Shown: positions 4,629 to 32,419 of the stretch, piece after piece
How positions within the stretch are numbered: position 1 is the stretch's first letter
Layout: each line of letters starts with the position of its first letter
From: Candidatus Moraniibacteriota bacterium
GTDB taxonomy: Bacteria; Patescibacteriota; Minisyncoccia; JAHIHE01; JAGLIN01
Direction of reading: 5' to 3'
DNA: 40,357 nucleotides
Assembly (NCBI GenBank): GCA_030638895.1
Contig: DAOWDS010000029.1
Location: 1 to 40,357 of the forward strand
The notes under the pieces: generated by a model
The model's database searches: none
What the model was told of the DNA's origin: nothing
Seen by the model: the letters and a program-made list of their open reading frames with translations, nothing else
Translations under genes and position numbers: made by a program

Positions 4629-5396
4629 ATGTCTGGACATAATAAGTGGTCAAAAATTAAAAGGCAAAAAGGAGTTGCTGATGTGAAGAAAGGGAAGATT
4701 TTTTCACAGCTCTCAAAACAAATTGCACTTGAGGCAAAAAATAGCGGAGATCCTGCAATGAACCCGGCATTAAAGCTTACAATTGAAAAAGCAAAGCAAT
4801 CCAATATGCCTGCTGATAATATTATAAAAGCAATTAAAAAAGGAACTGGGGAAATTGAAGGAGGAACGATTGAAGAGGTTTTATATGAGGCCTATGGTCC
4901 AGAGGGAACTGCTCTTATAATTGAAGGAACTACAGATAATACAAACAGAACAGTAGCGGAAATAAAACACATTCTTTCCAAAAATAACGGGCGGCTTGGA
5001 GAAGCTGGAAGCGTAAAATGGATGTTTAATAGATTTGGATATATTGAGATTGATAAAAAAAGTTTGCAAATCAGCGAAGAAGAAACAGAAATGATGATTA
5101 TTGATTCTGGTGCAGAAGATTTTAGTGTTCCAACCCCCCAACCCCCCTTATCAGGGGAAACTATAGAAGGTCAAGTTATTGTAGTTTATACAAAGCCAGA
5201 AGATTTATATAAAGTAAAAGAGAATCTAGAAAAAAATAATTTGATAATTGGTGATGTTGGTTTTGAATGGAAGGCAAAAAATACAATCAAAATTAAAGAT
5301 GAAAAAATTCATAATAGAATTGAAAAACTTTTTGAAGCTCTTGATGAACAAGAAGACGTGAATGATGTTAGTTCAAGTTTAGAGGAATGGGACTGA
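4629..5396 (+). CDS. yebC: YebC/PmpR family protein
   Basis: MSGHNKWSKIKRQKG, YEAYGPEG, TDNTNRT motifs; upstream of ruvC. Confidence 0.97.
   Translation: MSGHNKWSKIKRQKGVADVKKGKIFSQLSKQIALEAKNSGDPAMNPALKLTIEKAKQSNMPADNIIKAIKKGTGEIEGGTIEEVLYEAYGPEGTALIIEGTTDNTNRTVAEIKHILSKNNGRLGEAGSVKWMFNRFGYIEIDKKSLQISEEETEMMIIDSGAEDFSVPTPQPPLSGETIEGQVIVVYTKPEDLYKVKENLEKNNLIIGDVGFEWKAKNTIKIKDEKIHNRIEKLFEALDEQEDVNDVSSSLEEWD
5129..5160. repeat. C-rich hairpin element in frame in yebC (encodes PTPQPPLSGE)
   Basis: CCAACCCCCCAACCCCCCTTATCAGGGGAAA; stem CCCCT-TATC-AGGGG. Confidence 0.7.
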
Positions 5397-5455
5397 ATCT
5401 TAAATTAAATTTTTTAATTTTAATCAAATTAAATCTTAGTGAAAAAATAACATAT

Positions 5456-5575
5456 AAAAAACAAGAGATAAGAAACAAAGACACAAACAAATTCAAAATC
5501 ACAATAATCAATCCGTTTGAAATTTGTGATTTGATTATTAGAATTTTTTGATTATTGTATCTTGCATCCTTATAA
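5456..5575. repeat. Degenerate heptamer-like tracts in inverted arrangement
   Basis: A/C-rich tract (aaacaag agataag aaacaaa..aaaatca caataat) followed by a complementary T/G-rich tract (tttgtga tttgatt attagaa..ttgtatc ttgcatc). Confidence 0.5.
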
Positions 5576-5627
5576 TTTAATTTATGATATTTTTTTGATT
5601 CACTGTTCTAAATTTTAAATTTATTTT

Positions 5628-6122
5628 ATGATTATTCTCGGTATTGACCCCGGAACTGCAATTACTGGTTTTGGTGTGATTGAGAGTCAAAATAATAAAT
5701 TAAAAGTTATAGACGCTGGCTGTATCAAAACTGATAAAAATTTAGATATGTCCGAAAGGCTTGATTTGATTGCGAAAAAATTAAAAAATATTATAAAGAA
5801 ATATAAACCCCAAATAATGGCTGTTGAAGAATTATTCTATTTTAAGAATAAGAAAACTGTAATAACAGTTGCGCAAGCCCGAGGGGTTATTTTATTTATG
5901 GGTAAAAATCAAGGAATAGAGATCTGTGAATATACTCCTTTACAGGTTAAACAGGCAGTGGTAGGATATGGTCGTGCTGAGAAAAAACAGGTTCAACAGA
6001 TGGTTAAGTTAATTTTAGGCTTAAAAGAAATTCCTAAACCAGATGACGTAGCAGATGCGCTTGCAGTGGCGGTTTGTTGTGAAAGTAGTTATAAATTTGA
6101 GAAGAAAATTAACAAAAAATAA
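5628..6122 (+). CDS. ruvC: Holliday junction resolvase RuvC
   Basis: ILGIDPG, AVEELF, QARGV, YTPLQVK..GYGRAEK, PDDVADALAVA. Confidence 0.98.
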   Translation: MIILGIDPGTAITGFGVIESQNNKLKVIDAGCIKTDKNLDMSERLDLIAKKLKNIIKKYKPQIMAVEELFYFKNKKTVITVAQARGVILFMGKNQGIEICEYTPLQVKQAVVGYGRAEKKQVQQMVKLILGLKEIPKPDDVADALAVAVCCESSYKFEKKINKK

Positions 6123-6188: not shown

Positions 6189-6836
6189 ATGTCAGAAATA
6201 ATTAATTTAATATTAAGCCAAGGAGTTGATGTTGATACTGTTTATCTAATCCTTACTCTGCCGTTTATCGCGACTCTTATTGCCGCCTTTAGACAATTGA
6301 TTGGGATTAAATCATTTGGTATTTATACTCCGCTTGTTTTAACGTTTGCTTTTTGGGCGGTTGGATTAAAATATGGATTAACTATATTTATAATAATCTT
6401 TTTAACTGGTACTGTAGTTAGATATGTTCTTAAAAATTTCCGTCTTTTATATATGCCTAGAATGGCGCTTGTTTTAACGGTAATTAGTTTGGCAATTCTG
6501 GTTTTACTTACAGTTGGTGGATATCTTCAAAAAACCGGATTGGCTTCAGTGTCCATTTTGCCGATTCTTATCTTAATAACTCTTATAGAAAAGTTTATTT
6601 CAACCCAAGTTGAGAAGGGATTTAGAACGGCGGCATTTCTTTCAGTTGAAACACTTGCTATTTCCATAGCAGGCTACTATTTTATAATCTGGGATGTTTT
6701 TAGGGGTTTAGTTTTAAATCATCCGGAGTATATTTTGTTGTTGTTTGCGGTTAATGTATTTTTAGGTAAATGGACGGGGGTTAGATTAAGCGAATATTTA
6801 AGATTTAGAGAAGTTATAAAAAATATTGATAGATAA
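6189..6836 (+). CDS. 7TM domain protein (7TM_transglut type) associated with ATP-grasp ligases
   Basis: RQLIGIKSFGIYTP, LLYMPRMA, LPILILITLIEK, LGKWTGVRLSEYLRF; multiple TM helices; adjacent to a glutamate-ligase-like gene. Confidence 0.85.
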   Translation: MSEIINLILSQGVDVDTVYLILTLPFIATLIAAFRQLIGIKSFGIYTPLVLTFAFWAVGLKYGLTIFIIIFLTGTVVRYVLKNFRLLYMPRMALVLTVISLAILVLLTVGGYLQKTGLASVSILPILILITLIEKFISTQVEKGFRTAAFLSVETLAISIAGYYFIIWDVFRGLVLNHPEYILLLFAVNVFLGKWTGVRLSEYLRFREVIKNIDR

Positions 6837-6840
6837 AAAC

Positions 6841-6953
6841 AAATTGTTAAATTGCCAAACTGTTAAATTGTTACGCGCGGCATAGCAATTTGTATGGTGT
6901 AATTATGAATATGCGTTATACATAATAATTTAGCAATGTAGTAATTTAACAAT
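6841..6953. repeat. Octamer tandem repeats (AAATTGTT-like x4) with an inverted tract (AGCAATTT-like)
   Basis: aaattgtt aaattgcc aaactgtt aaattgtt at 6841-6872; taattt agcaatgt agtaattt aacaat at ~6926-6953. Confidence 0.65.
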
Positions 6954-6959
6954 AGAACT

Positions 6960-8486
6960 ATGTTTACTTTAATAAAAAATAGCAAAGGTATTCTTGGGAT
7001 GAATGCCAGAAACTTTTCTTATATTAGACCAAACAATTTTCAAGGAGCGATTCGTTTGGCGAATAATAAATTGCGAAGTAAAGAAGTGCTTTTAAAAGCG
7101 GAAGTTCCTATTCCAAAGGTTTATGGTATTATTAAGAATAGACTTGAGCTGGAAATTTTTAAATGGGGCGATTTGCCAAAAACTTTTGTTTTAAAGCCAA
7201 ATCGCGGCAAAGGAGGAGAAGGGATAAAAGTGATTTTTGGACAAAAAAAAGATTTGAGCTGGGTCTCCACACAAGGCAAAACTATCACTATAAAAAATTT
7301 AAAAGACCATATTAGGGACATTTTTGAAGGATTTTATTCTTTTTCCGGAACATCAGACATCGCTTTTTTTGAAGAAAGAATTCAGCTTTTGAAAGTTCTT
7401 AAACCATATTCTTATGAAGGCATTCCTGATGTTAGAGTAATTATTTATAATAAAGTTCCGGTAATGGCGATGCTTCGTCTTCCGACCAGAGAGTCTGGCG
7501 GAAAATCCAATCTGCATTTGGGGGGCGTGGGGCTGGGAGTAGATATTGCTAATGGCGTTACAACAAATGCCATAATGCGCGATCAGCTGATTGAAAAACA
7601 TCCGGACACAAAATTAATTTTAAGCGGAATAAAAATTCCTAATTGGAAAGAAATTTTGGAAATCGCGATTAAATGCCAAGAAGCTTCAGGATTAGGATAT
7701 ATTGGTGTTGATGTTGCAATTGACAGCGGGCGCGGTCCTGTTGTGCTGGAAATAAATGCTCATGCCGGACTTTCAATCCAAATTGCCAATCTTGCGCCGC
7801 TAAAGTACCGTTTGCAAAAAATAAGCGGCTTAAAAGTAAAAAACGAAGCGCGTGGGATTAGAATCGCGCAAGATCTTTTTGGAGGTGAAATTGAAGAAGA
7901 AATTGAAGAAATTTCAGGAAAACAGGTTTTAGGAATTATTGAGGCCATTAAAATTAAACATAAGGTAAAAGAAAATGAAGAAACAAATAAAGACAGAAAA
8001 GATAAATTAAACATAGAAAAACAAGAAGATAAGCCAGAAGAAATGGAATTAAGAGCAAAAATTGATACAGGAGCAGATTTATCTTCAATCGACAAGTCTT
8101 TGGCAAAAAATCTTGGATATGCAGAAATTATAGATGAATTTGATGAAGCGATAAAAAACATTAAAATTGATACCGCTTTAACAAAAGAAATTTTAGATGA
8201 ACAAATTAAAGATAAACTTGAAAAATGGGGAGACGGCATTGATACTGTTATTATTAAATCTAGTCACGGAGCAACTTTTAGGCTTGTTATAAAAATGAAT
8301 ATAACACTTTCTGGCGTGGAAATTATTTCTAAAATGTCCGTCACAGACAGAAGCAATCTCGAATTTCCTATAATTATTGGGAGAAAAAGTTTAGGAAAAT
8401 TTTTAGTTGATCCAAGTAAAAAGTCTAAGGCGATTTTTGGGAAAGAAGTAAACGTGACTAATAATAAAAATAATTTAGAAAAATGA
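6960..8486 (+). CDS. Alpha-L-glutamate ligase-like ATP-grasp protein fused to a C-terminal retropepsin-like (RimB-type) aspartic protease
   Basis: LGMNARN, FVLKPNRGKGGEGI, GIPDVRVI, AMLRLPT..GKSNLHLGG, LEINAHAGLSIQIAN; C-terminal AKIDTGADLSSID..DRSNLEFPIIIGRK. Confidence 0.88.
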   Translation: MFTLIKNSKGILGMNARNFSYIRPNNFQGAIRLANNKLRSKEVLLKAEVPIPKVYGIIKNRLELEIFKWGDLPKTFVLKPNRGKGGEGIKVIFGQKKDLSWVSTQGKTITIKNLKDHIRDIFEGFYSFSGTSDIAFFEERIQLLKVLKPYSYEGIPDVRVIIYNKVPVMAMLRLPTRESGGKSNLHLGGVGLGVDIANGVTTNAIMRDQLIEKHPDTKLILSGIKIPNWKEILEIAIKCQEASGLGYIGVDVAIDSGRGPVVLEINAHAGLSIQIANLAPLKYRLQKISGLKVKNEARGIRIAQDLFGGEIEEEIEEISGKQVLGIIEAIKIKHKVKENEETNKDRKDKLNIEKQEDKPEEMELRAKIDTGADLSSIDKSLAKNLGYAEIIDEFDEAIKNIKIDTALTKEILDEQIKDKLEKWGDGIDTVIIKSSHGATFRLVIKMNITLSGVEIISKMSVTDRSNLEFPIIIGRKSLGKFLVDPSKKSKAIFGKEVNVTNNKNNLEK

Positions 8487-9364
8487 AAAAAATTAAGTTT
8501 GCTATAATTGGCGCCAGTGAAACAGAAAATACCAAGAATCTTATTGAAGAAATAAAATTAAGAGGACATTTGGTTTTTTTAATTCAACCTAAAAATTTAG
8601 TTTTTGAGTTTTCTAAAAATAAAAAGTTTAAAATTAAGCAGGGAAATATAAATTTGGATAAGTTGGATATATTTATTTTTAGAGGATATAACATAAATAT
8701 TGTTGTGGCAAAAATTTTGGCTGAAAAATTAATCAGGGATAAAAAGGTGGTTATAGATGAAGTTTTAGGAAAAAGATTTATTCCGAGTAAAATATTTGAA
8801 TGCAGTAAATTTGCCGAATATAATATAAATCATCCTGTGACATTTCAGGCATTGGATATTTCATCTTACAAAATTATTTTGGACAAGGTAACTTTTCCTA
8901 TAATTGTAAAACCATTGTATGGACAAAAGGGGCAAGGTATAATTAAAATAAATAATAAAACTAAAGCTTTGGCATTTTTCAAAAAAAATCCTAGAGGGTA
9001 TTTAGTTCAGGAGTATTTAAAAACAGATAGCGATATTAGAGTTTTTGTTGTTAACAATAAAATTCTTGGCGCTATGAGGAGATTTGTTCTGTCTGGCGAT
9101 TTTAGATCAAATGCGTCATTGGGCACCAAAGTGGAAAAAGTGATACCTACTAAAGAAATGAAAACGATTGCTATTAAAGCGACCAAAGCGATGGGATATG
9201 AAATTGCTGGTGTTGATTTTTTAGAATATAAAAATAAACTGTATGTTTTAGAGGTTAATTCTACTCCTCAGTGGCAAAAGTTTAAAGAGATTACAGGTAT
9301 TAATCCGGCAAAAAATATAGTCAGTTTAGCGTTAAAAAAATATAAAAAAAATAATACAAGTTAA
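8483..9364 (+). CDS. RimK-family ATP-grasp amino acid ligase
   Basis: PIIVKPLYGQKGQG, VQEY, DIRVFVV, DFRSNASLG, AGVD, LEVNSTP; ATGA overlap with upstream gene. Confidence 0.9.
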   Translation: MKKIKFAIIGASETENTKNLIEEIKLRGHLVFLIQPKNLVFEFSKNKKFKIKQGNINLDKLDIFIFRGYNINIVVAKILAEKLIRDKKVVIDEVLGKRFIPSKIFECSKFAEYNINHPVTFQALDISSYKIILDKVTFPIIVKPLYGQKGQGIIKINNKTKALAFFKKNPRGYLVQEYLKTDSDIRVFVVNNKILGAMRRFVLSGDFRSNASLGTKVEKVIPTKEMKTIAIKATKAMGYEIAGVDFLEYKNKLYVLEVNSTPQWQKFKEITGINPAKNIVSLALKKYKKNNTS

Positions 9365-9378
9365 CAATTTACATAAAA

Positions 9379-10713
9379 ATGAAAAAAATATTATACTTTA
9401 AAAACTACAAAATTTCTTCTGATTCTATATTATTTAAATACAAGTTTAACAATAAAAGTTATACTGTTGAATTTATTTCGAAAGAATTGCTACAAAATAA
9501 AAGCTTTGATCCTAAAAATGATTATGTTTTAAACAAAGTCATTTGTTATTTAGGTGTAATTTCTAGTTTTAACTTATTTGATTTAGAATATTTTAATGAA
9601 ATAATTGTAGAATGTATGGTATTAAACAAAGAAGAAGGCGATTATTTTTCTAATCTTTCTTTCGATGGCTTAGCTGAATTTAGATATATTAATAAAATAA
9701 ACATAAGTAAAAAAGTAAAATTTTCTTCTATCTGTAGTCAAAGTAATTGTCTATATAAAAAACCAAAACTATTTTTTAATAAAAAAACTATTTTGTTAAA
9801 TGGAGGAGGAAAAGATTCTGCCGTGGCAGCTGAAATGCTAAAATTGATAAAAGAAAATTATAGCTGGTTAACTTTAAATATGAATACTGCTAGAAAAAAT
9901 ATAATTTTAACATCAAAAATTAAAAGTTGCTTTTCATTATCGAGAGTTATAGACAAAAATATTAGAAAAGATAGTAAATACTTGGGTCACAAGCCAGTTA
10001 GCGCTCTCATAGCTTTTATAAGTATTCTTTACGCATATATTTATAAATACTCATATGTAGTTACGGCTAATGAATATTCATCAAATTTTTCTAATTTAAA
10101 AATAAACGATATATCAATAAATCACCAATATACTAAATCTCTAGATTTTGAAAAAAAATTTAATGTTTTTATACGAAACAGATTATTTAAGGGAGTTACA
10201 TATTATAGTGTTTTAAGACCTTTATATGAAATACAAATAACAAAAATATTTTCTTTCTATAGGCAATACTTTCCTCATTTCATAAGTTGTAATATAGGAG
10301 TTAAAGAAAACAAATGGTGTCTTAAATGTCCTAAATGCGCGTTTATTTTTCTTGCTTTAGCGCCTTTTATCTCAATTGCAAATATTAAAAAAATTTGGGG
10401 CTCCAATTTATTTTTAGATAAAAATATTACAGATAATATTTTAAAACTTATCGACAATAGTGCCAAACCATTTGATTGTGTAGGAACCAAAGAAGAATGT
10501 CGACTCGCTCTATATTTATGCGAAAAAAATAAACTTTTAGAAGAAGTTTCGAAAAGTACAAAAAAGGAATTATTTAAATATATTCAAAATTACGATTACG
10601 AAAAAAACTTAAAAAAATATTTACAGACATACAAAAGAGAAAATAATATTCCTAAAATCATTATTCCGAAAGTGGAAAAATTCTGGAAAAAAACACTGGA
10701 AATTAGACAATAA
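9379..10713 (+). CDS. MurL-like ATP-dependent peptidyl-glutamate epimerase (PP-loop, Cys cluster)
   Basis: GGGKDS PP-loop, GH.P, ANEYSSN, NHQYTKS, LRPLYE.QI, SCN, WCLKCPKC.F, KPFDCVG; 444 aa. Confidence 0.75.
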   Translation: MKKILYFKNYKISSDSILFKYKFNNKSYTVEFISKELLQNKSFDPKNDYVLNKVICYLGVISSFNLFDLEYFNEIIVECMVLNKEEGDYFSNLSFDGLAEFRYINKINISKKVKFSSICSQSNCLYKKPKLFFNKKTILLNGGGKDSAVAAEMLKLIKENYSWLTLNMNTARKNIILTSKIKSCFSLSRVIDKNIRKDSKYLGHKPVSALIAFISILYAYIYKYSYVVTANEYSSNFSNLKINDISINHQYTKSLDFEKKFNVFIRNRLFKGVTYYSVLRPLYEIQITKIFSFYRQYFPHFISCNIGVKENKWCLKCPKCAFIFLALAPFISIANIKKIWGSNLFLDKNITDNILKLIDNSAKPFDCVGTKEECRLALYLCEKNKLLEEVSKSTKKELFKYIQNYDYEKNLKKYLQTYKRENNIPKIIIPKVEKFWKKTLEIRQ

Positions 10714-10761
10714 TTATTCTGCTAATATTCTTTGCCTTTTAAGCTTATAATAAAACTTTGT

Positions 10762-12402
10762 ATGAAAAATGAACAGCCAAAATTAGAAATAATAATTTCT
10801 GAAATTAAAAAAGTGGGAGAAGAAAAAGAAGTTGAAGATGCAGTGATTAGGGAAGAGCGTGAGACTTTATCGGAAGTATTAGAAATTCCCGAAGAAGATG
10901 TTAAAAAATTAGAAATAAATATAGAAGAAAAAGAAAAATCTGAAAATAGTAAAATATTATTTGAGTATGCAGAAAAAATTTATGATATTACGAAAGATTA
11001 TAGAGCGGTTTATATATATTTAGATAACACAGATACAAAACTAATAAATATAGAAAAATTGAAAGAAGCTATTAATGATTTAGAAGAAATTCAGGACGAA
11101 GCGCAAAATAGAAATGAGCAAATTGGGAATATCATTAATAAAATAATATTTCCGGAAAAGGCCAAGATTCAACTTCTTTTAGAATTTAAAAACAGCAACT
11201 CAGAAGGAGTTTTTGAAAATGGTAAAATTGCTTACGGAGATATTGACGAAGAATTGTGCGCGAAAGCTCTTGATATTTATAATGATAAATTAGAATTTAT
11301 AAACAGTAAAAAGAATTTATTTAAAGAGATTGATAGTAACAACTCAGAAGAAGCTTTAAAGTATTTAAAATTGGCATATAAACATACTGATGAATTTTCA
11401 ATTGAGAATGATGATGATTGGTACAAAGAAAAATTAGAAGTAATAAAAAAAGAAAGACAGACAGACAGCATAGAAGAGAAACTTAAAAAAAGTAAGTTCA
11501 ACGCTGAAGATATAAAAAATTATTTTGAAATAGCTTTAATAAAGGGAGGGTTGGAAAATGCTGGGTATAAAGTGATTATTGATTCTGTTGCTAAATCTAT
11601 TGGGGTTTATAAGAAACATCCGAAATACGATAGTCCTGTAATTTTAATTCCTGAAAATAGAGAAGTTGACGGGATAAAGCTTCTTGAATTAATAGCTCAT
11701 GAAATAGGCGGGCATATAGCCTCGGGTTTTTACAGCAACAAACAAGGGCTTGGAGCGGTATCTATAGGAAGGGATTGGGAGACCTATAATGAAGGAATTG
11801 CAAAAAAAAATGAGATTGAAATAAAAAAAGAGATTTTAGAAAATTCTTACTTGAATTTTAAAATAAATTCAAGTCCGCTTTATGTCTTAGCTATGGAGAG
11901 AATAAAAAACGGAGGAGATTTTGATGAAACATGCGATTACATTTTTAGCTTGAAAAAGAAAGAACATTTAGCAGAAGGAAATGATAATTTAGAAAACGAA
12001 AGAGAAGCTAAGAAAACAGCGGAAAAAATATGTAACAGGGTATTTAGAGGATTTGATAAAAAAGAAAAAGGGAAATATTTTACGAAAGATTTAGCGTATT
12101 TGGTTGGAGAATCTGGTGTTCGAGAAATGAAAAAAACAGGAGTAGATAAATATTTATATTTGTCCAAAGTAGATCCCAAATTAATTCCAGATTTAATTAA
12201 AATGGGAGTTTATACTTATGAAAAAGGGTTGCAAATGACAAAAGATGTTGCTAAACAAGTTTGGCAAGATAAGGACTGGTTGGCAGATTATATAAAAAAC
12301 AAAAAGTGGTATGAAGAAAATACCCCAGAACATTTAGGACATTGGAATTATAGAGATAAATACATGAATGAGAATAAAACTGGATTGAAAAGCGAGGAAT
12401 AG
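10762..12402 (+). CDS. DUF1704 / MATCAP-like metallocarboxypeptidase
   Basis: HEIGGH (HExxxH), downstream NEGIA, RVFRG, FTKDLAYLVG; start taken at ATG 10762 rather than TTG 10732. Confidence 0.78.
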   Translation: MKNEQPKLEIIISEIKKVGEEKEVEDAVIREERETLSEVLEIPEEDVKKLEINIEEKEKSENSKILFEYAEKIYDITKDYRAVYIYLDNTDTKLINIEKLKEAINDLEEIQDEAQNRNEQIGNIINKIIFPEKAKIQLLLEFKNSNSEGVFENGKIAYGDIDEELCAKALDIYNDKLEFINSKKNLFKEIDSNNSEEALKYLKLAYKHTDEFSIENDDDWYKEKLEVIKKERQTDSIEEKLKKSKFNAEDIKNYFEIALIKGGLENAGYKVIIDSVAKSIGVYKKHPKYDSPVILIPENREVDGIKLLELIAHEIGGHIASGFYSNKQGLGAVSIGRDWETYNEGIAKKNEIEIKKEILENSYLNFKINSSPLYVLAMERIKNGGDFDETCDYIFSLKKKEHLAEGNDNLENEREAKKTAEKICNRVFRGFDKKEKGKYFTKDLAYLVGESGVREMKKTGVDKYLYLSKVDPKLIPDLIKMGVYTYEKGLQMTKDVAKQVWQDKDWLADYIKNKKWYEENTPEHLGHWNYRDKYMNENKTGLKSEE

Positions 12403-12421
12403 AATTTTTCAACAAAAACTT

Positions 12422-13465
12422 ATGATAAAAAATGCACCAAAAAGTATAAAAGCTATTAGCTCAATAATTTTAGCTGAAGAGGCATTAAAAAGAGGAATAA
12501 AGATTAATCATATTAATAGATATCAAAAAAGAATGGCTTTTTTGGAATTGTTGTACAAAAAACATTTTGAATATATAGCTGGTCAGAACGTTTCCCAGAC
12601 ATCTTTCACGGGTAATTATGCCACATCAAATAAAGCATTAACTAAAAGTTTGTTATTAAGAGCAAAGATAAATATTGCGAAAGGAAAATTATTTAGCAAA
12701 GGTGATATTGACAAAGCGCAAAATTTTATAAATAAAATAGGATATCCAATTGTAATTAAAAAGAAAGACGGAACTCATGGAGATTTGGTTTTTGTGGGAA
12801 TAAAAAACAGAAAAATGTGCGACAAAGCAGCCAATTGTATTTTAAAAGAAAATGACGATGTTTTAATAGAGAAAGAATTTAAAGGAAAAGAATATAGAAT
12901 TATAGCAACTAAAAATAAATTTATAGCTGCTACAAATAGAATTCCTGCTAATGTTATCGGAGACGGTATTCATACCATAAGAGAGCTTATTAAGAGTAAA
13001 AATAATGATATTAAACGCGGAAATAGTTTTTTTGAAAATAAACCACTAAGAAAAATAAAAGTGAATAATATTGTGAAACAAAATATAAGAGAGCAAAATA
13101 TGACATTAAATACAATACTTTTTGAAAAGGAAAAAATATATTTAAGAAAAACATCTAACCTGTCAACCGGCGGAGATAGTATTGATGTAACAGACCAGGT
13201 TCATCCGGAAATTAGAAAAATTGCAATTAGGGCTATAAGAGCTATTCCTGGACTTGCCTATGCCGGAATAGATTTAATGACTAACAATAACATTTCAAAA
13301 AAACCAACAAAAAATAGTTATATAATAATTGAAATAAATGCATCTCCTGGAATATTTATGCATCATTTCCCGTATCAAGGAAAATCAAGGAATGTTGCAA
13401 AAGGAATAATTGACATTTTATTTCCAGAAACGAAAGGGAAATATATTGACGTGAAAATTAAATAA
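12422..13465 (+). CDS. Stand-alone cyanophycin-synthetase/GshAB-like ATP-grasp ligase
   Basis: NKALTKSLL, YPIVIK, GKEYR, RIPANVIGDGIHTIRELI, NLSTGGDSIDVTD, AGIDL, IEINASPG; no Mur-ligase or GCL domain. Confidence 0.85.
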   Translation: MIKNAPKSIKAISSIILAEEALKRGIKINHINRYQKRMAFLELLYKKHFEYIAGQNVSQTSFTGNYATSNKALTKSLLLRAKINIAKGKLFSKGDIDKAQNFINKIGYPIVIKKKDGTHGDLVFVGIKNRKMCDKAANCILKENDDVLIEKEFKGKEYRIIATKNKFIAATNRIPANVIGDGIHTIRELIKSKNNDIKRGNSFFENKPLRKIKVNNIVKQNIREQNMTLNTILFEKEKIYLRKTSNLSTGGDSIDVTDQVHPEIRKIAIRAIRAIPGLAYAGIDLMTNNNISKKPTKNSYIIIEINASPGIFMHHFPYQGKSRNVAKGIIDILFPETKGKYIDVKIK

Positions 13466-13489: not shown

Positions 13490-13517
13490 TTAACATTTGT
13501 TAAATTTAAGCTATAAT
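13490..13517 (+). promoter_or_regulatory. Putative sigma70 promoter for the glgA cluster
   Basis: TTAACA-16 nt-TATAAT; AT-rich background lowers specificity. Confidence 0.4.
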
Positions 13518-13589
13518 GTAACTAGATATATACTGTCTGGTTATTTTATGACATAAATTTTTATTTTAGAATATAATAATACAAATTTT

Positions 13590-16055
13590 ATGCTGAAAGC
13601 GCTTAAAATACTTTTTGTGACAACCGATTTATCTCCTTTTTCAAAAGCGGGCGGACTTGGAGACGTTTCTTGCTCTTTGCCGAAAGCGCTTTTAAAAGCG
13701 GGTCTTAATATAAGAATTATTATGCCACGACATGGAGTTATAGATGAAAAGAAACATAATATAAAGCTTATAAAAGATAATTTAAAAGTAAAAATTATAA
13801 AAAATACCGAAATAAATTTCAGAATAAAAAAAGGGAATTTAACTAAGGAGCTGCCAGTTTATTTTATAGACAAATTCAAATATTTTGGAGGAAGAAACAA
13901 AATATATGGATATAAAGACGAAAATCAGCGTTTTATGTTCTTTAATTTTGCAGTTTTTGAAGCAATTAGAAATATGAATAATTGGGTTCCAGACATAATA
14001 CATTGCAATGACTGGCACAATGGATTGATTCCATATCTGCTTAAAACTAAATTTAGCAAAGAAGAAATATTAAAAAAAACAAAAACAATTTTTACGATTC
14101 ATAATCTCACTTTTCAATTAGGAAAAAATTGGTGGGAAATTGATAAGAAAGAGCAGGATGATGGCGTGAGCAAGCTGCCTGATTTTAAGGATAGATATAA
14201 AATTGACAGAATTAATTTTGCAAAAAGAGGGATATTAAGCGCGGATATAATAAACACCGTAAGTGAAAAATATGCTGAAGAGATAATTCAAAAAAAGTTT
14301 GGACAGGACCTTTATAATATATTGTTAGTAAAACATCAAGAAAAGAGATTTTTTGGAATAATAAATGGCATTGATTATAAGGAATATAATCCTCAAACTG
14401 ATCCCGGTCTTTGGATAAACTATGATCATAATTCTCTTCAAAAAAAAGTTATAAATAAAATGAAATTACAGGAAGATTTTGGCCTTGAAATTGATGATGA
14501 TGTTCCGTTAATAGCAATGGCGACTAGGATTACTGAGCAAAAAGGATTTGATTTAATTTTGGAAATTATAGACGCCTTATTGAGGCTTAATATGCAATTA
14601 ATTCTTATTGGCAGCGCAGATTCAGATTACAAAAAAATATTTAAAAAATTAAGCAAAAAAAATCCCAAAAAAGTAGCGACTCATTTAAAGTTTGAAACTA
14701 AAAAAATAACAAGAGTTTATGCGAGTTCCGACATGTTTTTAATGCCATCTCGTTTTGAACCATGCGGGCTGGGGCAGATGATAAGTTTGCGATACGGTTC
14801 TATTCCAATTGTTCGAGAAACGGGAGGACTTTCTGATACAATTACAAATTATAATCCGCGGACAAAAAATGGAAACGGATTTGTTTTTAAAACTTATGAT
14901 CCACAAGACCTTCTTGTTGCGATTGTTAGAGCGCTAGAGACTTATAAATATAAAGAAGATTGGCGAAATCTTGCAAAAAAAGGAATGCAAGAATCTTTTT
15001 CTTGGGAGGTTCCTGCTAAAAAATATAATATACTTTATAAAAAAGCAATTAATTTAAAAATAGATAAAAAATTTATGTATCAAACCATAGAAGATATTAA
15101 TAAAAAAATTAAAGAACTGGCAAAAAAAGAATGTTTTAAAATTATAAAACCCGTTAGTTATTTTATTAAAAAGAAAAAAAATTATTATGCTCACAATGTT
15201 TTAAAAGGCAACAAAAAAATATTTTTAAAAGCTAGAATTACGGCCAATAAAGGTTATATTTTTGGGATTGAAAAAGGAATGAAAATTTCAAAAATAATGA
15301 CTGAAAATAAAAAAATATCAAATAAGGTTAACTTCACGGGATTTTTGGGAGGATCTTTAAAAGAAATTCCAGAATGGTATGTTTATAATTATATTGAAGG
15401 AAATATTTTAGGAGATTTTTATAATATGCCTAAAAAACATGAAAAAGAAGTATATATCAAAAACTCTGTTAAAAATTTGAGAAATCTGCAAAGCGTATCT
15501 AACGAGCTTATAAAAGAAGCAGAAAAAAATGGAGTTATCGAACATATTAAGAAGAGAGGGTATACGGATTATTGTAATACAGTTGAATATTACGAAAAAC
15601 AAAAAGTTGAAGACGGAAAAATTGATTTTGCCAGTGTTTATAAACTGCTTGAAAAAAATAAGAAAGCATTAGATGAAAATTTTGTTATTGCTCATGGTGA
15701 TTTTACTCTTGCTAATCAAATTGTTTCAGACAAAGACGGAAAAGTATATCTTTCTGATTGGGACTCAGTTAGGATTGACAATATTGCGGCAGATTTAACT
15801 CATCTTTGGGTTCAAACATGGAGATATCCAGCTTGGCGCTCAAAACTTCTGCAAGAATTTTTAGGAAGTATTTCTGCAACAGACAAAAATAAATTTAAAG
15901 AAATTTTTAGAATTACAGCCATTGAACAGGCAATGGCGGAAATTAAATGGAATTCAACGGCATGTAAGAAAAAATATAAAAAAGGCGTTATTGACATTTC
16001 AATAAAAACTATCAAAACTGCGTTAGAAGGATTTGAATGGCTGATTGAAATCTAG
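13590..16055 (+). CDS. glgA: Glycogen synthase (GT5) fused to a C-terminal APH/choline-kinase-like phosphotransferase domain
   Basis: KAGGLGDV, IIHCNDWH, TIHNL, INTVS..YA.EI, NGID, RITEQKG, PSRFEPCGLGQM, TGGLSDT; extra ~325 aa with HGDFTLAN..DWD..DL. Confidence 0.9.
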   Translation: MLKALKILFVTTDLSPFSKAGGLGDVSCSLPKALLKAGLNIRIIMPRHGVIDEKKHNIKLIKDNLKVKIIKNTEINFRIKKGNLTKELPVYFIDKFKYFGGRNKIYGYKDENQRFMFFNFAVFEAIRNMNNWVPDIIHCNDWHNGLIPYLLKTKFSKEEILKKTKTIFTIHNLTFQLGKNWWEIDKKEQDDGVSKLPDFKDRYKIDRINFAKRGILSADIINTVSEKYAEEIIQKKFGQDLYNILLVKHQEKRFFGIINGIDYKEYNPQTDPGLWINYDHNSLQKKVINKMKLQEDFGLEIDDDVPLIAMATRITEQKGFDLILEIIDALLRLNMQLILIGSADSDYKKIFKKLSKKNPKKVATHLKFETKKITRVYASSDMFLMPSRFEPCGLGQMISLRYGSIPIVRETGGLSDTITNYNPRTKNGNGFVFKTYDPQDLLVAIVRALETYKYKEDWRNLAKKGMQESFSWEVPAKKYNILYKKAINLKIDKKFMYQTIEDINKKIKELAKKECFKIIKPVSYFIKKKKNYYAHNVLKGNKKIFLKARITANKGYIFGIEKGMKISKIMTENKKISNKVNFTGFLGGSLKEIPEWYVYNYIEGNILGDFYNMPKKHEKEVYIKNSVKNLRNLQSVSNELIKEAEKNGVIEHIKKRGYTDYCNTVEYYEKQKVEDGKIDFASVYKLLEKNKKALDENFVIAHGDFTLANQIVSDKDGKVYLSDWDSVRIDNIAADLTHLWVQTWRYPAWRSKLLQEFLGSISATDKNKFKEIFRITAIEQAMAEIKWNSTACKKKYKKGVIDISIKTIKTALEGFEWLIEI

Positions 16056-28397: not shown

Positions 28398-31385
28398 ATG
28401 CCAATAAGAAAGAAATATAGAGTGAAAAGTTCAAGCGTTAGAAAAAAAGAAGTCGCTAGAAAAAGGCGGACAGGCTTTAGGTTGCCAAGATTTACTAAAA
28501 TAAGGCCAAAAAAGAGATTAATTAAGAAAAGCGCGACTCCGTCTTTGCTTAGAAAGTTGTATAACTGCATAAAATCAAAAAAGAAAAAAAGTGGATTAAA
28601 AAAAACCTATAAAGCGGTTTTAAGACTGGCAATTTTATTTTCAGTTGTTGGGATAATTGGATTGATCGGAGTTTTTATCTATTTTTCAAAAGACATACCA
28701 AATCCGGACAAAATTGTTGATCGTAGCGTCGCGGAGTCTACAAAAATTTACGATCGCACTGGAGAACATCTTTTATATGAGATACATGGCGAAGAGAAAA
28801 GGACAATTGTCGGGCTTGATCAGGTTTCAAAAAATCTTATAAACGCAACGATTGCCACTGAAGACCAGGATTTTTACAAGCATCATGGCGTTGATTTTCG
28901 CGGAATAGCAAGAGCAATATATAAGGACATAAGAAGCGGAGAAAAGCTTCAAGGGGGGTCAACAATAACCCAGCAATTGATAAAAAATTCAATTTTAACT
29001 TCAGAAAGGACTTTTACAAGAAAAATAAAGGAAATAATTTTGGCGATTGAAACTGAACAAAAATTTAGCAAAGATGAAATTCTTGAAATGTATCTAAATC
29101 AAATTCCTTATGGATCTAACGCATATGGCATTGAAGCCGCTTCGCAGACCTTTTTTGAAAAATCTGCTAAAGATCTTGACGTTTCAGAAGCGGCTTTGCT
29201 TGCTGGCCTTCCCAAAGCTACGACTTATTATTCTCCGTATGGCGCGCATCCAGAAGCGCTGAAATCACGCTATAAAAACATCATTAACCAAATGAAGAAT
29301 GAGGGATATATAAGCGAAGAGGAAGCTAAACAAGCAGAAGAAGTTGAAATATTAAAAAAGATAAAACCATTTAGGGAAGATATAAAAGCGCCTCATTTCG
29401 TGATGTATGTTCGCCAGCAGCTTGCTGATGAATTTGGAGAAGAAAAGATTGAAAAAGGAGGGCTTAAAGTTTATACCACGCTTGATTATGATATGCAATT
29501 GATTGCCGAAAATGTTGTCAAAAAGGGGGCTGAGAAAAATTCTCAAAATTATAACGCGCGCAATGCAGCTTTAGTTGCTATTAATCCAAAGTCAGGACAA
29601 ATTTTGTCTATGGTCGGAAGCAAAGATTATTTTAATATGGAAGAAGATGGGAATGTGAATGTTGCAACTTCTAATCGTCAGCCAGGATCGTCTTTTAAGC
29701 CTTTTGTTTATGCTACGGCTTTTGGCAAAGAATACACTCCGGACACTATTCTTTTTGACGTTCAAACTAATTTTGGAAAAGACGGAAGCGGAAAAGACTA
29801 TGTTCCACAAAATTATAATTTTAGTTTTTCAGGACCAGTAACTATGAGATCTGCTCTAGCGCGGTCTTTAAATATTCCCGCTGTAAAAACATTATATTTA
29901 ACTGGAATTAATGATAGTATTCAAACAGCTCATAATTTGGGGATTTCCACTCTTAATAATCCGGAAAATTATGGATTATCACTGGTGCTTGGAACTGGAG
30001 AAGTAAAATTATTAGATATAGTTTCAGCTTATGGAGTTTTTGCAAATGACGGAAAAAGAAATTTTGCTGTTTCTGTTTTAAAAATAGAAGATGCAAATGG
30101 AAATATTTTAAAAGAATTTGAAGCAAATGAAAAACAAGTATTAGATATGGAAGTTGCGAGAAATATAAACAGTATATTATCTGATAATATTGCCAGAGCT
30201 CCGACGTTTGGGTCAGAAAGCAAATTATATCTTGACGAAAGGCCCGTGGCAGCCAAGACTGGGACAACAAGTGATTATAAGGACGGATGGACCGTAGGAT
30301 ATACTCCGAGTTTAGTGGCGGGAGTTTGGGCTGGGAACAATAAAGGCGAAAAAATGAAAAAAGGAGGAGGAATAACGGTAGCCGCTCCTATTTGGAATGA
30401 TTTTATGTATAAGGTTTTAGCGCTTGATTCAATTGAAAATTTTTCTGCTCCCGATAAAATTAAAACTGGAAAAACTGTTTTAGATGGAAATTATAAAAAT
30501 GAAGTAATTGTTAAAATTGACAAGGCTTGCGGAGATAAGCTTGCCAGCGAGCTTACGCCAGAAAATCAAATAGAAAAGAAAACCTATATAGAAGTTCATA
30601 ATATATTAAATTATGTCAAAAAGGACGATCCGCGCGGTGATTATCCTGAAAATCCAAGCAAAGATCCAAATTTTTCAAATTGGGAAGATGCTATTTTGAA
30701 ATGGGCAGCGGAAAATGCTGAAGAAGTGAATGTTAATCTTCCTATGGAAGTTTGTTCAGTAAGAGAAGACGATAAAATGCCAATTTTAAAAATCTCGTCT
30801 CCTCAAAACAACCAGATAATAAAGGCAGGCAAACTAGCCATAAAAGCAGAAGCTTCTACTGTTTTTGGCTTAAAACAGTTGGATTTTTATTTTGATGATG
30901 TTTTAATAGGGGTCGGAAAAACTTCTCCTTATGAGGTTTCTTATAAATTGCCAGCTGGAACTAAAGATGGCATACACACTGTTATAATCAGAGCTTATGA
31001 TAAAATAGACAATTCAGTTCAAAAAAACATATCAGTGATTGTAAGCAATAACAATATATCTTTATATTTAAAGCCCATACTAGACATCGATTTTCCATTT
31101 ATTATGAATGTTGCAACTTCAGGATTAGACGTAGAAAAAGTTTATTTTTATTATCAACTAGACAGCATATATGATGCTGATATGAATTTAATCAAAAAGC
31201 CTGGCTCAAAACAAGAAATAGGATCAGCCAAATTTTCCATTCCAGGCGAAAGCAATCTATATCAGATATTATGGGAAGAAGATAAACAATATTTTATTTC
31301 TGGAAAGTATAAGATTTTTGCTGTAATGGAAGATAAAAACGGAAAAACATACGAAAGCAACAAGAGATTTGTGGAAGTTAAATAG
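28398..31385 (+). CDS. Class A penicillin-binding protein (PBP1A family) with C-terminal Ig-like domain(s)
   Basis: EDQDFYKHHG, GGSTITQQL, RKIKE, YLN; SSFK (SxxK), SLN, KTG; C-terminal Big-like 'DFYFDD..PY..GIHT..RAYD'. Confidence 0.95.
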   Translation: MPIRKKYRVKSSSVRKKEVARKRRTGFRLPRFTKIRPKKRLIKKSATPSLLRKLYNCIKSKKKKSGLKKTYKAVLRLAILFSVVGIIGLIGVFIYFSKDIPNPDKIVDRSVAESTKIYDRTGEHLLYEIHGEEKRTIVGLDQVSKNLINATIATEDQDFYKHHGVDFRGIARAIYKDIRSGEKLQGGSTITQQLIKNSILTSERTFTRKIKEIILAIETEQKFSKDEILEMYLNQIPYGSNAYGIEAASQTFFEKSAKDLDVSEAALLAGLPKATTYYSPYGAHPEALKSRYKNIINQMKNEGYISEEEAKQAEEVEILKKIKPFREDIKAPHFVMYVRQQLADEFGEEKIEKGGLKVYTTLDYDMQLIAENVVKKGAEKNSQNYNARNAALVAINPKSGQILSMVGSKDYFNMEEDGNVNVATSNRQPGSSFKPFVYATAFGKEYTPDTILFDVQTNFGKDGSGKDYVPQNYNFSFSGPVTMRSALARSLNIPAVKTLYLTGINDSIQTAHNLGISTLNNPENYGLSLVLGTGEVKLLDIVSAYGVFANDGKRNFAVSVLKIEDANGNILKEFEANEKQVLDMEVARNINSILSDNIARAPTFGSESKLYLDERPVAAKTGTTSDYKDGWTVGYTPSLVAGVWAGNNKGEKMKKGGGITVAAPIWNDFMYKVLALDSIENFSAPDKIKTGKTVLDGNYKNEVIVKIDKACGDKLASELTPENQIEKKTYIEVHNILNYVKKDDPRGDYPENPSKDPNFSNWEDAILKWAAENAEEVNVNLPMEVCSVREDDKMPILKISSPQNNQIIKAGKLAIKAEASTVFGLKQLDFYFDDVLIGVGKTSPYEVSYKLPAGTKDGIHTVIIRAYDKIDNSVQKNISVIVSNNNISLYLKPILDIDFPFIMNVATSGLDVEKVYFYYQLDSIYDADMNLIKKPGSKQEIGSAKFSIPGESNLYQILWEEDKQYFISGKYKIFAVMEDKNGKTYESNKRFVEVK

Positions 31386-31406
31386 ATATTGAAAATTAGG
31401 ATATTG

Positions 31407-31510
31407 TTCTACGGCGCTTTAGCGCACGGTTTGCGAGGTTTTAACCTCGCGAGATTGATATTATTCGTGAGGTTAAAACCTCACCGACCCTCAGCTAAAG
31501 CTGGGTAGAA
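31407..31510. repeat. Composite inverted repeat: inner REP doublet within an outer inverted repeat
   Basis: GCGAGGTTTTAACCTCGC (31433-31450) and GTGAGGTTAAAACCTCAC (31467-31484), flanked by TTCTAC..GCTTTAGC / GCTAAAGC..GTAGAA. Confidence 0.85.
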
Positions 31511-31550
31511 TATTCACTTACTTATTTTTTAAATAAACTAAACAAAAAAC

Positions 31551-32189
31551 ATGGCACGAATTTTAGTTTTTGGGGATAGTATAACTTATGGGGCCTGGGA
31601 TGCGATAAGGGGGGGGTGGGCAAATAGATTGAAAAGTTTTTGTATGGAAAGAGAATTAGAAAATCCAGAATTTGATTATCCTGTTTATAATCTTGGAATT
31701 TCCGGAGATAATTCAAGAGAGATGGTAAAAAGATTTGAATTTGAAGCAAGTCAGAGGCTAGAAGAAGATGAACCAATAATTATATTTGCGATTGGTATAA
31801 ATGATTCTCAATTTGTTAAAAGCGAGGATGACTTTAGAGTTCCTAAAAATGAATTCAGAAAAAATATAGAGCAACTAATAAAGTTTTCTAGAAAATTTTC
31901 TTCAAAAATAGTTTTTATTGGACTTACTGCTGTTGATGAGTTAAAAGTAAATCCTAATCCATGGGATAATAATAAGTCATATAAGAATGAATATATAGAA
32001 AAATATGATTTTATTATAAAATCTATCTGCAAAGAGAAAAAAATACATTTTATAAATATATATGAAGAATTTAATAAACTGGATTATAAAAAATTATTAG
32101 AAGACGGATTGCATCCGAATTTAGAGGGGCATCAGAAAATGTTTGAGATTGTGATAGATTTTTTGATGGAGAGGGGAATTGTAAAATAA
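31551..32189 (+). CDS. SGNH/GDSL hydrolase
   Basis: FGDSIT, NLGISG, GIND, DGLHPN. Confidence 0.93.
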   Translation: MARILVFGDSITYGAWDAIRGGWANRLKSFCMERELENPEFDYPVYNLGISGDNSREMVKRFEFEASQRLEEDEPIIIFAIGINDSQFVKSEDDFRVPKNEFRKNIEQLIKFSRKFSSKIVFIGLTAVDELKVNPNPWDNNKSYKNEYIEKYDFIIKSICKEKKIHFINIYEEFNKLDYKKLLEDGLHPNLEGHQKMFEIVIDFLMERGIVK

Positions 32190-32199
32190 ATTGTTTAAT

Positions 32200-32346
32200 G
32201 CGGGAACTGTTTTGTAAACAGTTTCCAATGTTTCCCAAGCAAATAATATTTATCAAACATTCTATCCACAATAAAAACGCAAAACGGTAAGATAAAAATT
32301 ACTGAAACTTAAAAACAAAAAGAACTGTTTACAAAACAGTTCCCAC
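32200..32346. repeat. Inverted REP doublet (GTRG-type)
   Basis: GCGGGAACTGTTTTGTAAACAGTTTC and GAACTGTTTACAAAACAGTTCCCAC. Confidence 0.85.
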
Positions 32347-32419
32347 GGAGATATGGTGGTATTACTTTAAATTCTGAGTTTTAAATAAAACAAATGTATT
32401 AATCCATAAAAACAAAAAT

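Follow-up and report, generated by a model that had tools for sequence, protein, structure and literature searches.

What use a bacterium with an 866-kb genome could have for three ATP-grasp ligases, a homologue of the glutamate epimerase MurL, two peptidases and a membrane protein, all encoded one after the other, is the question raised by contig DAOWDS010000029.1 of Candidatus Moraniibacteriota bacterium (GenBank assembly GCA_030638895.1), a member of the Patescibacteria or candidate phyla radiation (CPR). The whole contig of 40,357 nucleotides is referred to here as the window; it is contig C47 of a genome labelled G000 (60 contigs, 87% complete, approximately 30% G+C), and other sampled genomes carry G-numbers and fetched loci L-numbers. 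Six open reading frames (ORFs), all on the forward strand, occupy positions 6189-13465 and encode, in this order, a seven-transmembrane (7TM) protein, an RloC-type ATP-grasp ligase fused to a retropepsin, a RimK-like ligase, the MurL homologue, a MATCAP-like peptidase and a CphA-like ligase (Table 1). On sequence grounds we see an even chance that these form a functionally linked system of C-terminal ligation, epimerisation and trimming which is distinct from peptidoglycan synthesis. The cluster is best explained as an ATP-grasp system of the rlo/rim type in a form particular to its CPR hosts, which varies a core of an already known kind.

The first-pass annotation of the window had described six co-oriented and tightly packed genes and had named a family for each, and every one of these assignments was upheld by Pfam and NCBIfam. 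Successive genes are spaced by 123, -4, 14, 18 and 19 bp, followed by 124 bp to glgA, and the five enzyme genes are operon-like in their packing, with gaps of -4 to 19 bp and a 4-bp overlap between the end of the fusion gene and the start of the RimK-like gene. The gene order is not an assembly artefact, since contigs assembled from two runs on further samples of the same study span the RimK-MurL, MurL-MATCAP and MATCAP-CphA-like junctions with 0-2 differences.

A MurL paralogue independent of murD

The MurL homologue aligns with positions 20-443 of 447 of the model NF041275 at 201.8 bits, below the cut-off of 700 for this equivalog model built for Xanthomonadales, and is the only MurL homologue found in G000. 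MurL consumes ATP, forms AMP and inverts the C-terminal Glu from L to D only (PMC8788868, PMC5808125), and its known substrate is a UDP-sugar peptide (PMC8788868). The MurL family is far wider than the MurL papers list: matches came from over 586 species genomes and over 583 stretches of metagenome, and of these the best 80 + 80 loci were analysed. In the best 80 genome loci most MurLs precede or are fused with murD, a MurD match of at least 70 bits lying within 3.5 kb in 67/87 rows, and RimK-like genes were found beside MurL in only three loci (L013, L014 and L019).

Phylogenetic analysis separated the copy of the window from the murD-linked MurLs. Using IQ-TREE (LG+G4, 87 rows) it joins the RimK-adjacent copies of L013, L014 and L019 and two contig-edge copies, with a Shimodaira-Hasegawa-like approximate likelihood ratio (SH-aLRT) support of 100, and in a FastTree phylogeny of 167 rows its clade has 14 members (support 99). 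None of these 14 is adjacent to murD, seven are adjacent to RimK, one to an ATPgrasp_ST gene (L009) and four to an ATP-grasp gene of the type found with ribosomally synthesised and post-translationally modified peptides (RiPPs), so that 12/14 have an ATP-grasp neighbour, whereas the other 153 rows comprise 119 murD-adjacent and no RimK-adjacent copies. The RimK label changes once on the 167-row tree, compared with a mean of 6.9 changes for shuffled labels, and none of 500 shuffles gave a value as low. With the posterior mean site frequency (PMSF) model LG+C20+F+G4 and 44 rows, the 14 members are again separated by a single branch (SH-aLRT 99) from all other rows, which include the long-branched second copy of L019 that is linked to murD. 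There is thus a separate clade of ATP-grasp-linked MurL paralogues. The paralogue of the window is also independent of the murD of its genome (see below). We found no description of such a clade, or of MurL homologues beside ATP-grasp ligases, in the literature searched, which was mostly that outside subscription journals, and the same literature gave nothing relevant on ATP-grasp systems of Saccharibacteria.

Members of this clade are located beside RimK-like ligases, retropepsins and/or MATCAP-like peptidases in seven loci of separate lineages. In L019 the order is RimK-MurL-RimK-MATCAP-RimK-like, followed 5 kb further on by murE-murL-murD, and thus both kinds of MurL are present in one locus; in L109 the order is MATCAP-MurL-RimK-pepsin-RimK, and in L013 and L151 a RimK gene and a RimK-pepsin fusion are divergent from MurL. 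The trio of RimK, MurL paralogue and MATCAP-like protein recurs in the window, G009, L019 and L109, and in L013, L014, L111 and L151 the stretch seen has RimK and MurL but no MATCAP-like gene. The MurL paralogue of L009 is preceded by a GT4 glycosyltransferase gene and then two ATPgrasp_ST genes, and in L008 and L112 the neighbours of the paralogue have no family assignment.

The presumed catalytic residues are kept in both clades (the GGGKD PP-loop, N-E-x-S, N-H-Q-x2-K, S-C-N, W-C-x2-C-x-K-C and C367), and all 28 columns invariant among 29 MurL-family sequences (alignment A1) are kept in the clade of the window, whereas the 14-member clade does not keep eight positions (65, 66, 68, 71, 196, 199, 202 and 359) with a conservation of at least 87% among the 153 canonical MurLs. 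Retained catalytic residues together with lost signature positions are what one would expect if the substrate had changed and the chemistry had not. Compared with the MurD2-MurL pathway of Xanthomonas oryzae (Feng et al. 2017, reviewed in PMC8788868 and PMC5808125), the homologue in the window has full-length homology, the PP-loop and the Cys cluster in common, and presumably also the chemistry, i.e. ATP to AMP and terminal L-Glu to D-Glu after a ligation step, but it is in a separate clade away from murD, has the eight positions of murD-linked MurLs changed, and has ATP-grasp enzymes instead of Mur ligases as its partners.

The profile of the MurL homologue matches the PP-loop region of TtuA, and its AlphaFold2 (AF2) model (predicted local distance difference test score, pLDDT, 94.7) gave as best folds QatC, over the whole length, and then QueC, TtuA and Cap9, all of which are PP-loop enzymes and several of which adenylate carboxylates. 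Judging from these fold matches, the cysteine cluster is probably a QueC-like metal site. The QatC, Cap9 and QueC enzymes, which handle 7-deazaguanine carboxylates, are the best structural matches but have only 11-16% identity to the MurL homologue, and a defence-system reading was rejected, as none of the six proteins of the cluster fits a PADLOC model. Alignment of the MurL-family model with QatC of the QatABCD anti-phage system covers 425 columns (template modelling score, TM, 0.48), which suggests a common two-domain ancestor of MurL and the QatC-type QueC-like enzymes.

Two other observations concern the MurL family at large. The paralogues of L106, L107, L108 and L110, which follow a RiPP-type ATP-grasp maturase (TIGR04187-like), form a sister group to the MurL clade of the window. 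Downstream of them are another MurL-like ORF, which is shorter (~344 aa) and in L107 is fused, and three paralogous sulfotransferase genes, and this arrangement may be a peptide natural-product cluster with an epimerase. Many of the murD-linked MurLs are fused with MurD in one frame of ~810-980 aa (L017, L022, L025, L026, L029, L050, L051, L058, L062, L064, L068, L073, L074, L079, L080, L083 and L087), and would be single-polypeptide ligase-epimerases; no mention of these fusions was found in the parts of the MurL literature examined.

Supply of D-glutamate for the cell wall

The MurL homologue could merely supply D-Glu for peptidoglycan, as in Xanthomonas. G000 carries murD, murC/E/F-like genes and a class A penicillin-binding protein (PBP), it gave no match at E≤0.01 to either glutamate racemase (MurI, TIGR00067) or D-amino-acid aminotransferase (TIGR01121), and no other MurL homologue was found in it; adjacency to or fusion with murD is also the rule elsewhere (119/167 rows), and the murD of G000 is on another contig than the window and starts at the contig edge, with its upstream neighbour unseen. 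Against this role, the copy of the window is in the clade that is never murD-linked and does not keep the eight positions typical of murD-linked MurLs, and L019 has MurLs of both kinds. The family also normally lacks either enzyme, with a glutamate racemase over the cut-off in 0/23 genomes and MurL in 1/23 (G009), which indicates that these organisms get D-Glu in some other way. Furthermore, murD was present in 5/5 family genomes checked, including G009, where murD is kept and MurL is broken, and the MurD of G000 is the orthologue of that in its MurL-less relatives (60-78% identity, vs 27-33% to the MurL-adjacent MurDs). Based on the clade, the signature positions, the MurL-less family, G009 and the orthology of MurD, a peptidoglycan role of the MurL homologue is largely rejected, and we regard it as improbable. 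As for the family in general (G000 and 60 relatives), most genomes have murD and other mur genes, yet no racemase (0/23) and no MurL (22/23).

A second possible connection to the cell wall is the generation of free D-Glu, in which the RimK-like ligase would add L-Glu to the C-terminus of a carrier, the MurL paralogue would flip it and the MATCAP-like enzyme would release D-Glu for the canonical MurD. This would agree with the recurrence of RimK, MurL paralogue and MATCAP-like protein in four loci, with the failure to find MurI and D-amino-acid transaminase in the genome, with a MurD resembling the ordinary one of the family, and with the unidirectional conversion of L to D by MurL (PMC8788868). 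Such a generator would however be redundant in L019, which has the canonical murE-murL-murD; G009 has lost MurL and keeps murD, 22/23 family genomes have no MurL, and the four loci named above combine RimK and MurL without a MATCAP-like gene in the stretch seen. We also know of no MATCAP-family enzyme that releases a D-residue, although no search was made for one, and consider that there is only a slight chance of this explanation being correct.

The rlo-type core and its lineage additions

The coordinates of the six genes, their motifs and the boundaries of the island are given in Table 1.

Table 1. Genes, motifs and boundary features of the six-gene island (positions in the window; aa, amino acids)
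Feature	Position	Strand	Evidence or remark
YebC + RuvC	4629..6122	+	Upstream island boundary, conserved; RuvC adjoins the 7TM gene in 13/16 fetched loci
7TM membrane protein, 215 aa	6189..6836	+	PF14402 7TM_transglut, 101 bits (cut-off 25), profile positions 51-247 of 248
RloC-type ATP-grasp (aa 1-~300) fused to RimB/RloA-type retropepsin (aa ~350-490), 508 aa	6960..8486	+	
Retropepsin D-T-G-A motif, aa 369-372 of the fusion protein	8064..8075	+	From translation
RimK-family alpha-L-glutamate ligase homologue, 293 aa	8483..9364	+	TIGR00768, 162.8 bits (cut-off 143.4); PF08443, 129.9 bits
MurL-family PP-loop enzyme, putative ATP-dependent C-terminal L-Glu to D-Glu epimerase, 444 aa	9379..10713	+	NF041275
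PP-loop GGGKDS, aa 142-147 of the MurL homologue	9802..9819	+	G142-D146 invariant in the 29-sequence alignment (A1) and both clades
Cysteine cluster S-C-N + W-C-x2-C-x-K-C (C304, C314, C317, C320) of the MurL homologue	10285..10338	+	Invariant in A1 and both clades
MATCAP/DUF1704-family metallopeptidase homologue, 556 aa, TTG start	10732..12402	+	PF08014, 32.5 bits (cut-off 27)
HExxxH metal-binding motif HEIGGH, aa 323-328 of the MATCAP-like protein	11698..11715	+	Likely third ligand E354 in YNEG
Stand-alone ATP-grasp ligase, cyanophycin-synthetase G-domain / GshAB C-terminal type, 347 aa	12422..13465	+	
GlgA fused to APH-type kinase	13590..16055	+	Downstream boundary in family f1; TIGR02095, 506.8 bits, and PF01636

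The 7TM protein has approximately seven hydrophobic segments and corresponds to the C-terminal 7TM half of RloB (NF052267 positions 313-507 of 508, 71.8 bits, cut-off 900), without the transglutaminase domain of a full RloB. In the fusion protein the ligase part matches PF14397 (ATPgrasp_ST) with 237.4 bits (cut-off 31.4) and TIGR02291 with 291 bits, just below the cut-off of 314.2, and the peptidase part matches the retropepsin family PF05618 (42.6 bits, cut-off 27), the RloA3 model NF052264 (42.6 bits) and, in the Protein Data Bank (PDB), the sequences of 9g58/9g59; its DTGA motif we take to be the active site of a clan AA peptidase. There were 4499 homologues of the fusion protein at E≤1e-10, with both domains in nearly all of the best 120, and the nearest named ones are from Ca. 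Pacebacteria/Parcubacteria and 'Patescibacteria group' metagenome-assembled genomes. In G001 (contig C16) and G003 (contig C5) the RloC-pepsin and MATCAP-like matches share one open frame (931 and 961 aa, respectively), so that ligase, retropepsin and metallopeptidase may be joined there in a triple fusion.

The 7TM, ligase and retropepsin genes are adjacent and in one orientation (15/16 loci), as are those of the rloABC operon of Pseudomonas aeruginosa, which encodes the RloA retropepsins, the 7TM-inactive transglutaminase RloB and the ATP-grasp protein RloC, and was the subject of a genetic study in mBio in 2025 (PMC12239564). In that study three secreted RloA peptidases were required under hypo-osmotic stress, deletion of rloB or rloC suppressed the defect of the rloA triple mutant, and RimB/RloA were described as cutting the Glu tails made by RimK (PMC12239564). 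The trio, which the first-pass annotation had called predicted but uncharacterised, has therefore been characterised genetically, while the biochemical product of rlo is still unknown (PMC12239564). The families PF14402, PF14397/TIGR02291 and PF05618 are thus adjacent in both systems and the product is unknown in both, but in the window the peptidase is fused to the C-terminus of a cytoplasmic ligase, where Pseudomonas has it secreted with a signal peptide; it is internal to the ligase polypeptide, where an N-terminal signal is impossible (no signal-peptide predictor was run), and hence is not a separate secreted RloA. The island also differs by a 7TM protein without transglutaminase domain, by having two more ATP-grasp ligases, a MATCAP-like peptidase and a MurL paralogue attached, and in its distribution, since RloB is 96% proteobacterial (PMC12239564) and the 7TM half is common in this CPR class.

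The RimK-like ligase is above the cut-off for the ligase family (Table 1) and has Pseudomonas and E. coli RimK as its best solved relatives (7qyr, 4iwx, 5zct), but it is not RimK proper, as it reaches 79.1 bits on the equivalog model NF007764 (cut-off 331) and the ribosomal protein S6 of G000 (C50:2975-3718) ends in ...EDSMI and not in Glu-Glu. RimK requires the Glu-Glu C-terminus of S6, which it extends, and S6 was consequently rejected as an acceptor. At its C-terminus this S6 carries an extension rich in Lys and Glu, the length of which (~140 aa) is unusual. The combination of a RimK-family ligase with a RimB-like retropepsin resembles the rim operon, in which RimK and RimB perform poly-alpha-L-glutamylation and trimming of S6, and the MurL-paralogue loci L013, L014, L109 and L151 also resemble rim modules, with the RimK-pepsin fusions in L013/L151; the differences are the S6 end, the low score on the equivalog model and the absence of RimA. 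The CphA-like ligase aligns with positions 161-479 of 862 of TIGR02068 (295.7 bits, cut-off 850) and with positions 433-755, in the C-terminal half, of the GshAB model NF002688 (249 bits), its closest PDB entries being the ATP-grasp domains of GshAB (3ln7) and CphA1 (7lg5). It thus corresponds to the G domain of CphA1, which extends the backbone, and to the domain that adds Gly in GshAB, but lacks the M (Mur-ligase-like), N and GshA domains, and is therefore no cyanophycin synthetase, which has the N, G and M domains in one protein.

The MATCAP-like protein consists of an acidic, low-complexity N-terminal part (aa 1-~230) and a catalytic domain (aa ~230-556), and PF08014 was precomputed for 36/38 of its homologues. 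Sequence searches of the PDB gave little, with no MATCAP found by phmmer and only a weak match to 7z5g (E 0.099) with a four-sequence profile, whereas the top five Foldseek PDB matches of an AF2 model of aa 230-556 (pLDDT 85.2) were all human MATCAP (7z5g/7z6s, E 9e-4 to 1.7e-3, TM 0.48-0.51), followed by M32 carboxypeptidases, and this settled the assignment. H323, E324, H328 and E354 are invariant in 21 MATCAP-like sequences and in a second alignment (A3). An HExxxH motif with an 'EEG' third ligand has been described for TMCP1/MATCAP, and MATCAP/TMCP enzymes take the C-terminal Tyr and Glu off acidic tubulin tails (PMC10499314). By analogy, the MATCAP-like protein is a putative C-terminal carboxypeptidase acting on acidic tails. 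The tubulin tail code (TTL/TTLL with MATCAP/TMCP; PMC10499314) likewise pairs an ATP-grasp C-terminal ligase with a MATCAP-fold HExxxH carboxypeptidase, and human MATCAP is the best PDB fold match of the bacterial protein, but the present system is bacterial, with no tubulin, has an epimerase and an aspartic endopeptidase added, and the identity to human MATCAP is 14-15%. For the function of bacterial DUF1704 proteins the literature search gave only a transcriptome table from Photobacterium, which places a QEGLA/DUF1704 gene beside 'GshB' and shows induction of RimK at low salinity (PMC10308900). The MATCAP-like protein itself ends in ...KSEE and its G009 orthologue in ...KNGE; as Glu-Glu is the end that RimK extends on S6, this could be a coincidence or a hint of self-modification.

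Five of the six proteins (all but the 7TM protein) were searched for in 301 sampled genomes of the class, one of which is G000. The fusion protein was found in 83/301 genomes, among them 9/9 other sampled genomes of the family, the CphA-like ligase in 38, within 3.5 kb of the fusion gene in 24/38, the RimK-like ligase in 36, within the same distance in 18/36, the MATCAP-like protein in 14 (8/9 in the family), and MurL in 18, of which only those of G000 and G009 are inside the island. Sixteen loci, picked from the search matches and not at random, were fetched and compared by tblastn, and proved to be one syntenic island consisting of YebC-RuvC-7TM-RloC-pepsin and then a variable set. The 7TM gene is beside the fusion gene in 15/16 loci, the sixteenth being cut by the end of its contig, and the variable genes are CphA-like in 12, RimK-like in 9, MATCAP-like in 8 and MurL in 2. 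The usual set within the family is RloC-pepsin with the MATCAP-like and CphA-like genes, and in G000 and G009 RimK and MurL appear to have been inserted as a pair, with RimK alone in G010. The cluster of G009, the nearest relative of G000, is as in the window (72-88% identity), but its MurL is a pseudogene, in which a 461-bp deletion removes residues ~19-172, including the PP-loop, and shifts the frame, with the neighbouring genes intact.

The conserved core is therefore the 7TM protein with the RloC-type ligase fused to a retropepsin, and the other ligases, the MATCAP-like protein and MurL are lineage additions, the epimerase being an accessory and not a pillar of the island. Co-occurrence in other genomes had been set as the test that could refute the original suggestion of a shared pathway, and it held for the core, present as a pair in all 15 loci with both ends visible, for the CphA-like and RimK-like ligases near the fusion gene, and for the seven loci in which copies of the MurL clade are beside RimK, pepsin or MATCAP genes, but not for the six genes as a fixed unit, which they are not: of 301 genomes only two have MurL in the island, one of them with a broken copy. 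The variable content and the decaying MurL of G009 would also suit a variable island that gathers unrelated ATP-grasp and peptidase genes with no common substrate. We think this unlikely to be the explanation, since the family combinations recur, in differing orders, in distant lineages (L019, L109, L013/L151, L014 and L111), fusions recur as well (RloC-pepsin in the window, RimK-pepsin in L013/L151 and possibly RloC-pepsin-MATCAP in G001/G003), and the spacers are no longer than 19 bp.

Proposed mechanism and its implications

All five enzyme types of the cluster act at the C-terminal carboxylate of peptides or on C-terminal tails, as is established for these families, and for this reason the following mechanism is proposed. 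The ligases would add acidic residues, probably L-Glu, singly to the terminal alpha-carboxylate of an acceptor, after which the MurL paralogue would adenylate the terminal carboxylate and invert the last L-Glu to D-Glu. The D-residue could then cap the tail against trimming or serve as the acceptor for the next ligase, and the retropepsin (as endopeptidase) and the MATCAP-like enzyme (as exopeptidase) would shorten or remove the tail. The specificity for Glu, the D-chirality, the order of the steps, the role of the 7TM protein and the nature of the acceptor, which may be a protein tail, a free peptide or a glycan-linked residue, are what we infer within this scheme.

Several points weigh against a linked system separate from the cell wall. 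The genome is 87% complete and its murD is located at the edge of a contig, so that another murL, linked to murD, may have escaped detection; the 80 + 80 loci are those most similar to the query and hence a biased sample; and the branches of the clade are long (1.0-2.4 changes per column), so that attraction is possible, and the thorough PMSF search was incomplete. The set of genes is variable: among the 83 sampled genomes that bear the core, just 2 have MurL in the island. Since the MurL of G009 is broken with its neighbours intact, the epimerase can be dispensed with and might be no more than a passenger. The C-terminus of S6 makes the classical RimK acceptor unlikely, and no gene for an acceptor or precursor was found in the cluster. 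Reading the sequence of the 123-bp spacer at 6837-6959 gave nothing convincing as a precursor peptide, although small ORFs were not searched systematically.

The surroundings of the cluster bear on a further explanation, in which the ligases amidate a sugar acid, nucleotide-sugar or other carboxylate at the membrane and the MurL paralogue epimerises the attached Glu. The core ligase belongs to the Pfam 'sugar-transfer associated ATP-grasp' family, in L009 a GT4 glycosyltransferase gene and two ATPgrasp_ST genes come before the MurL paralogue, the known MurL substrate is a UDP-sugar peptide, the 7TM protein is always adjacent, and glycosyltransferases are encoded further downstream in the window, together with a GH57 protein, a class A PBP and alpha-2-macroglobulin. 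On the other hand, peptide chains are suggested by the two peptidases and by ligases of the RimK and CphA-G types, the cluster contains no polysaccharide export or polymerase genes, and the downstream glycosyl genes are of the glycogen type (GlgA, GH57), with glgA having promoter-like sites of its own: the two best of the region (11/12 matches) are at 13490-13577, just 5' of glgA. The scan as a whole was uninformative in this AT-rich DNA, with 86 promoter-like sites vs 64 expected and 3 terminator-like sites vs 3.8 expected. Decoration of a glycan or small molecule is thus, in our judgement, rather unlikely.

Two features of the downstream region are recorded here in their own right. One 821-aa protein combines the glycogen synthase GlgA with a kinase domain of the APH type (aminoglycoside phosphotransferase-like), and this fusion is located downstream of the island in 5/16 fetched loci, all of family f1, being kept directly 3' of it in L192, L193, L194, L195 and L201 (55-69% identity). 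Further on, a class A PBP is upstream of a 2148-aa bacterial alpha-2-macroglobulin (window positions 28398-38866), with 1035 bp and an unannotated 212-aa ORF (31551-32189) between them; this is a known pairing, here found in a CPR genome.

Returning to the C-terminal ligation and epimerisation system, a wider proposition can be put forward tentatively, and we hold it to be possible rather than probable. In this, the undescribed MurL branch would act generally after ligation, inverting the C-terminal residue from L to D in peptides that ATP-grasp ligases have made, with RimK-type tails, RiPP-type ATP-grasp maturases and sugar-associated ATP-grasps among its partners, and in this CPR bacterium a D-Glu-containing tail or peptide would be written by the RimK/RloC/CphA-like ligases and erased by the retropepsin and the MATCAP-type carboxypeptidase, as a bacterial counterpart of the tubulin tail code with a chirality switch.

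The remark in the first-pass annotation that such an organism would be expected to have little biosynthetic capacity fits the 866-kb genome, which in spite of its reduction spends approximately 7 kb on this cluster. The rlo/rim-type system affects osmotic tolerance, antibiotic sensitivity and biofilm formation in Pseudomonas, and the CPR versions give a handle on rlo, as ligase and peptidase are fused in them and located beside enzymes of recognisable chemistry, which narrows the rlo-type product to a C-terminally extended acidic peptide. The combination of bacterial ATP-grasp ligases with a MATCAP-fold carboxypeptidase would also form an evolutionary parallel to eukaryotic tubulin tails, with the same pairing of writer and eraser. 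If the proposed reading is true, the MurL fold has a role outside cell-wall synthesis, and the ATP-driven, one-way inversion of the last residue would be a cheap means of obtaining peptidase resistance or specificity for the next ligation.

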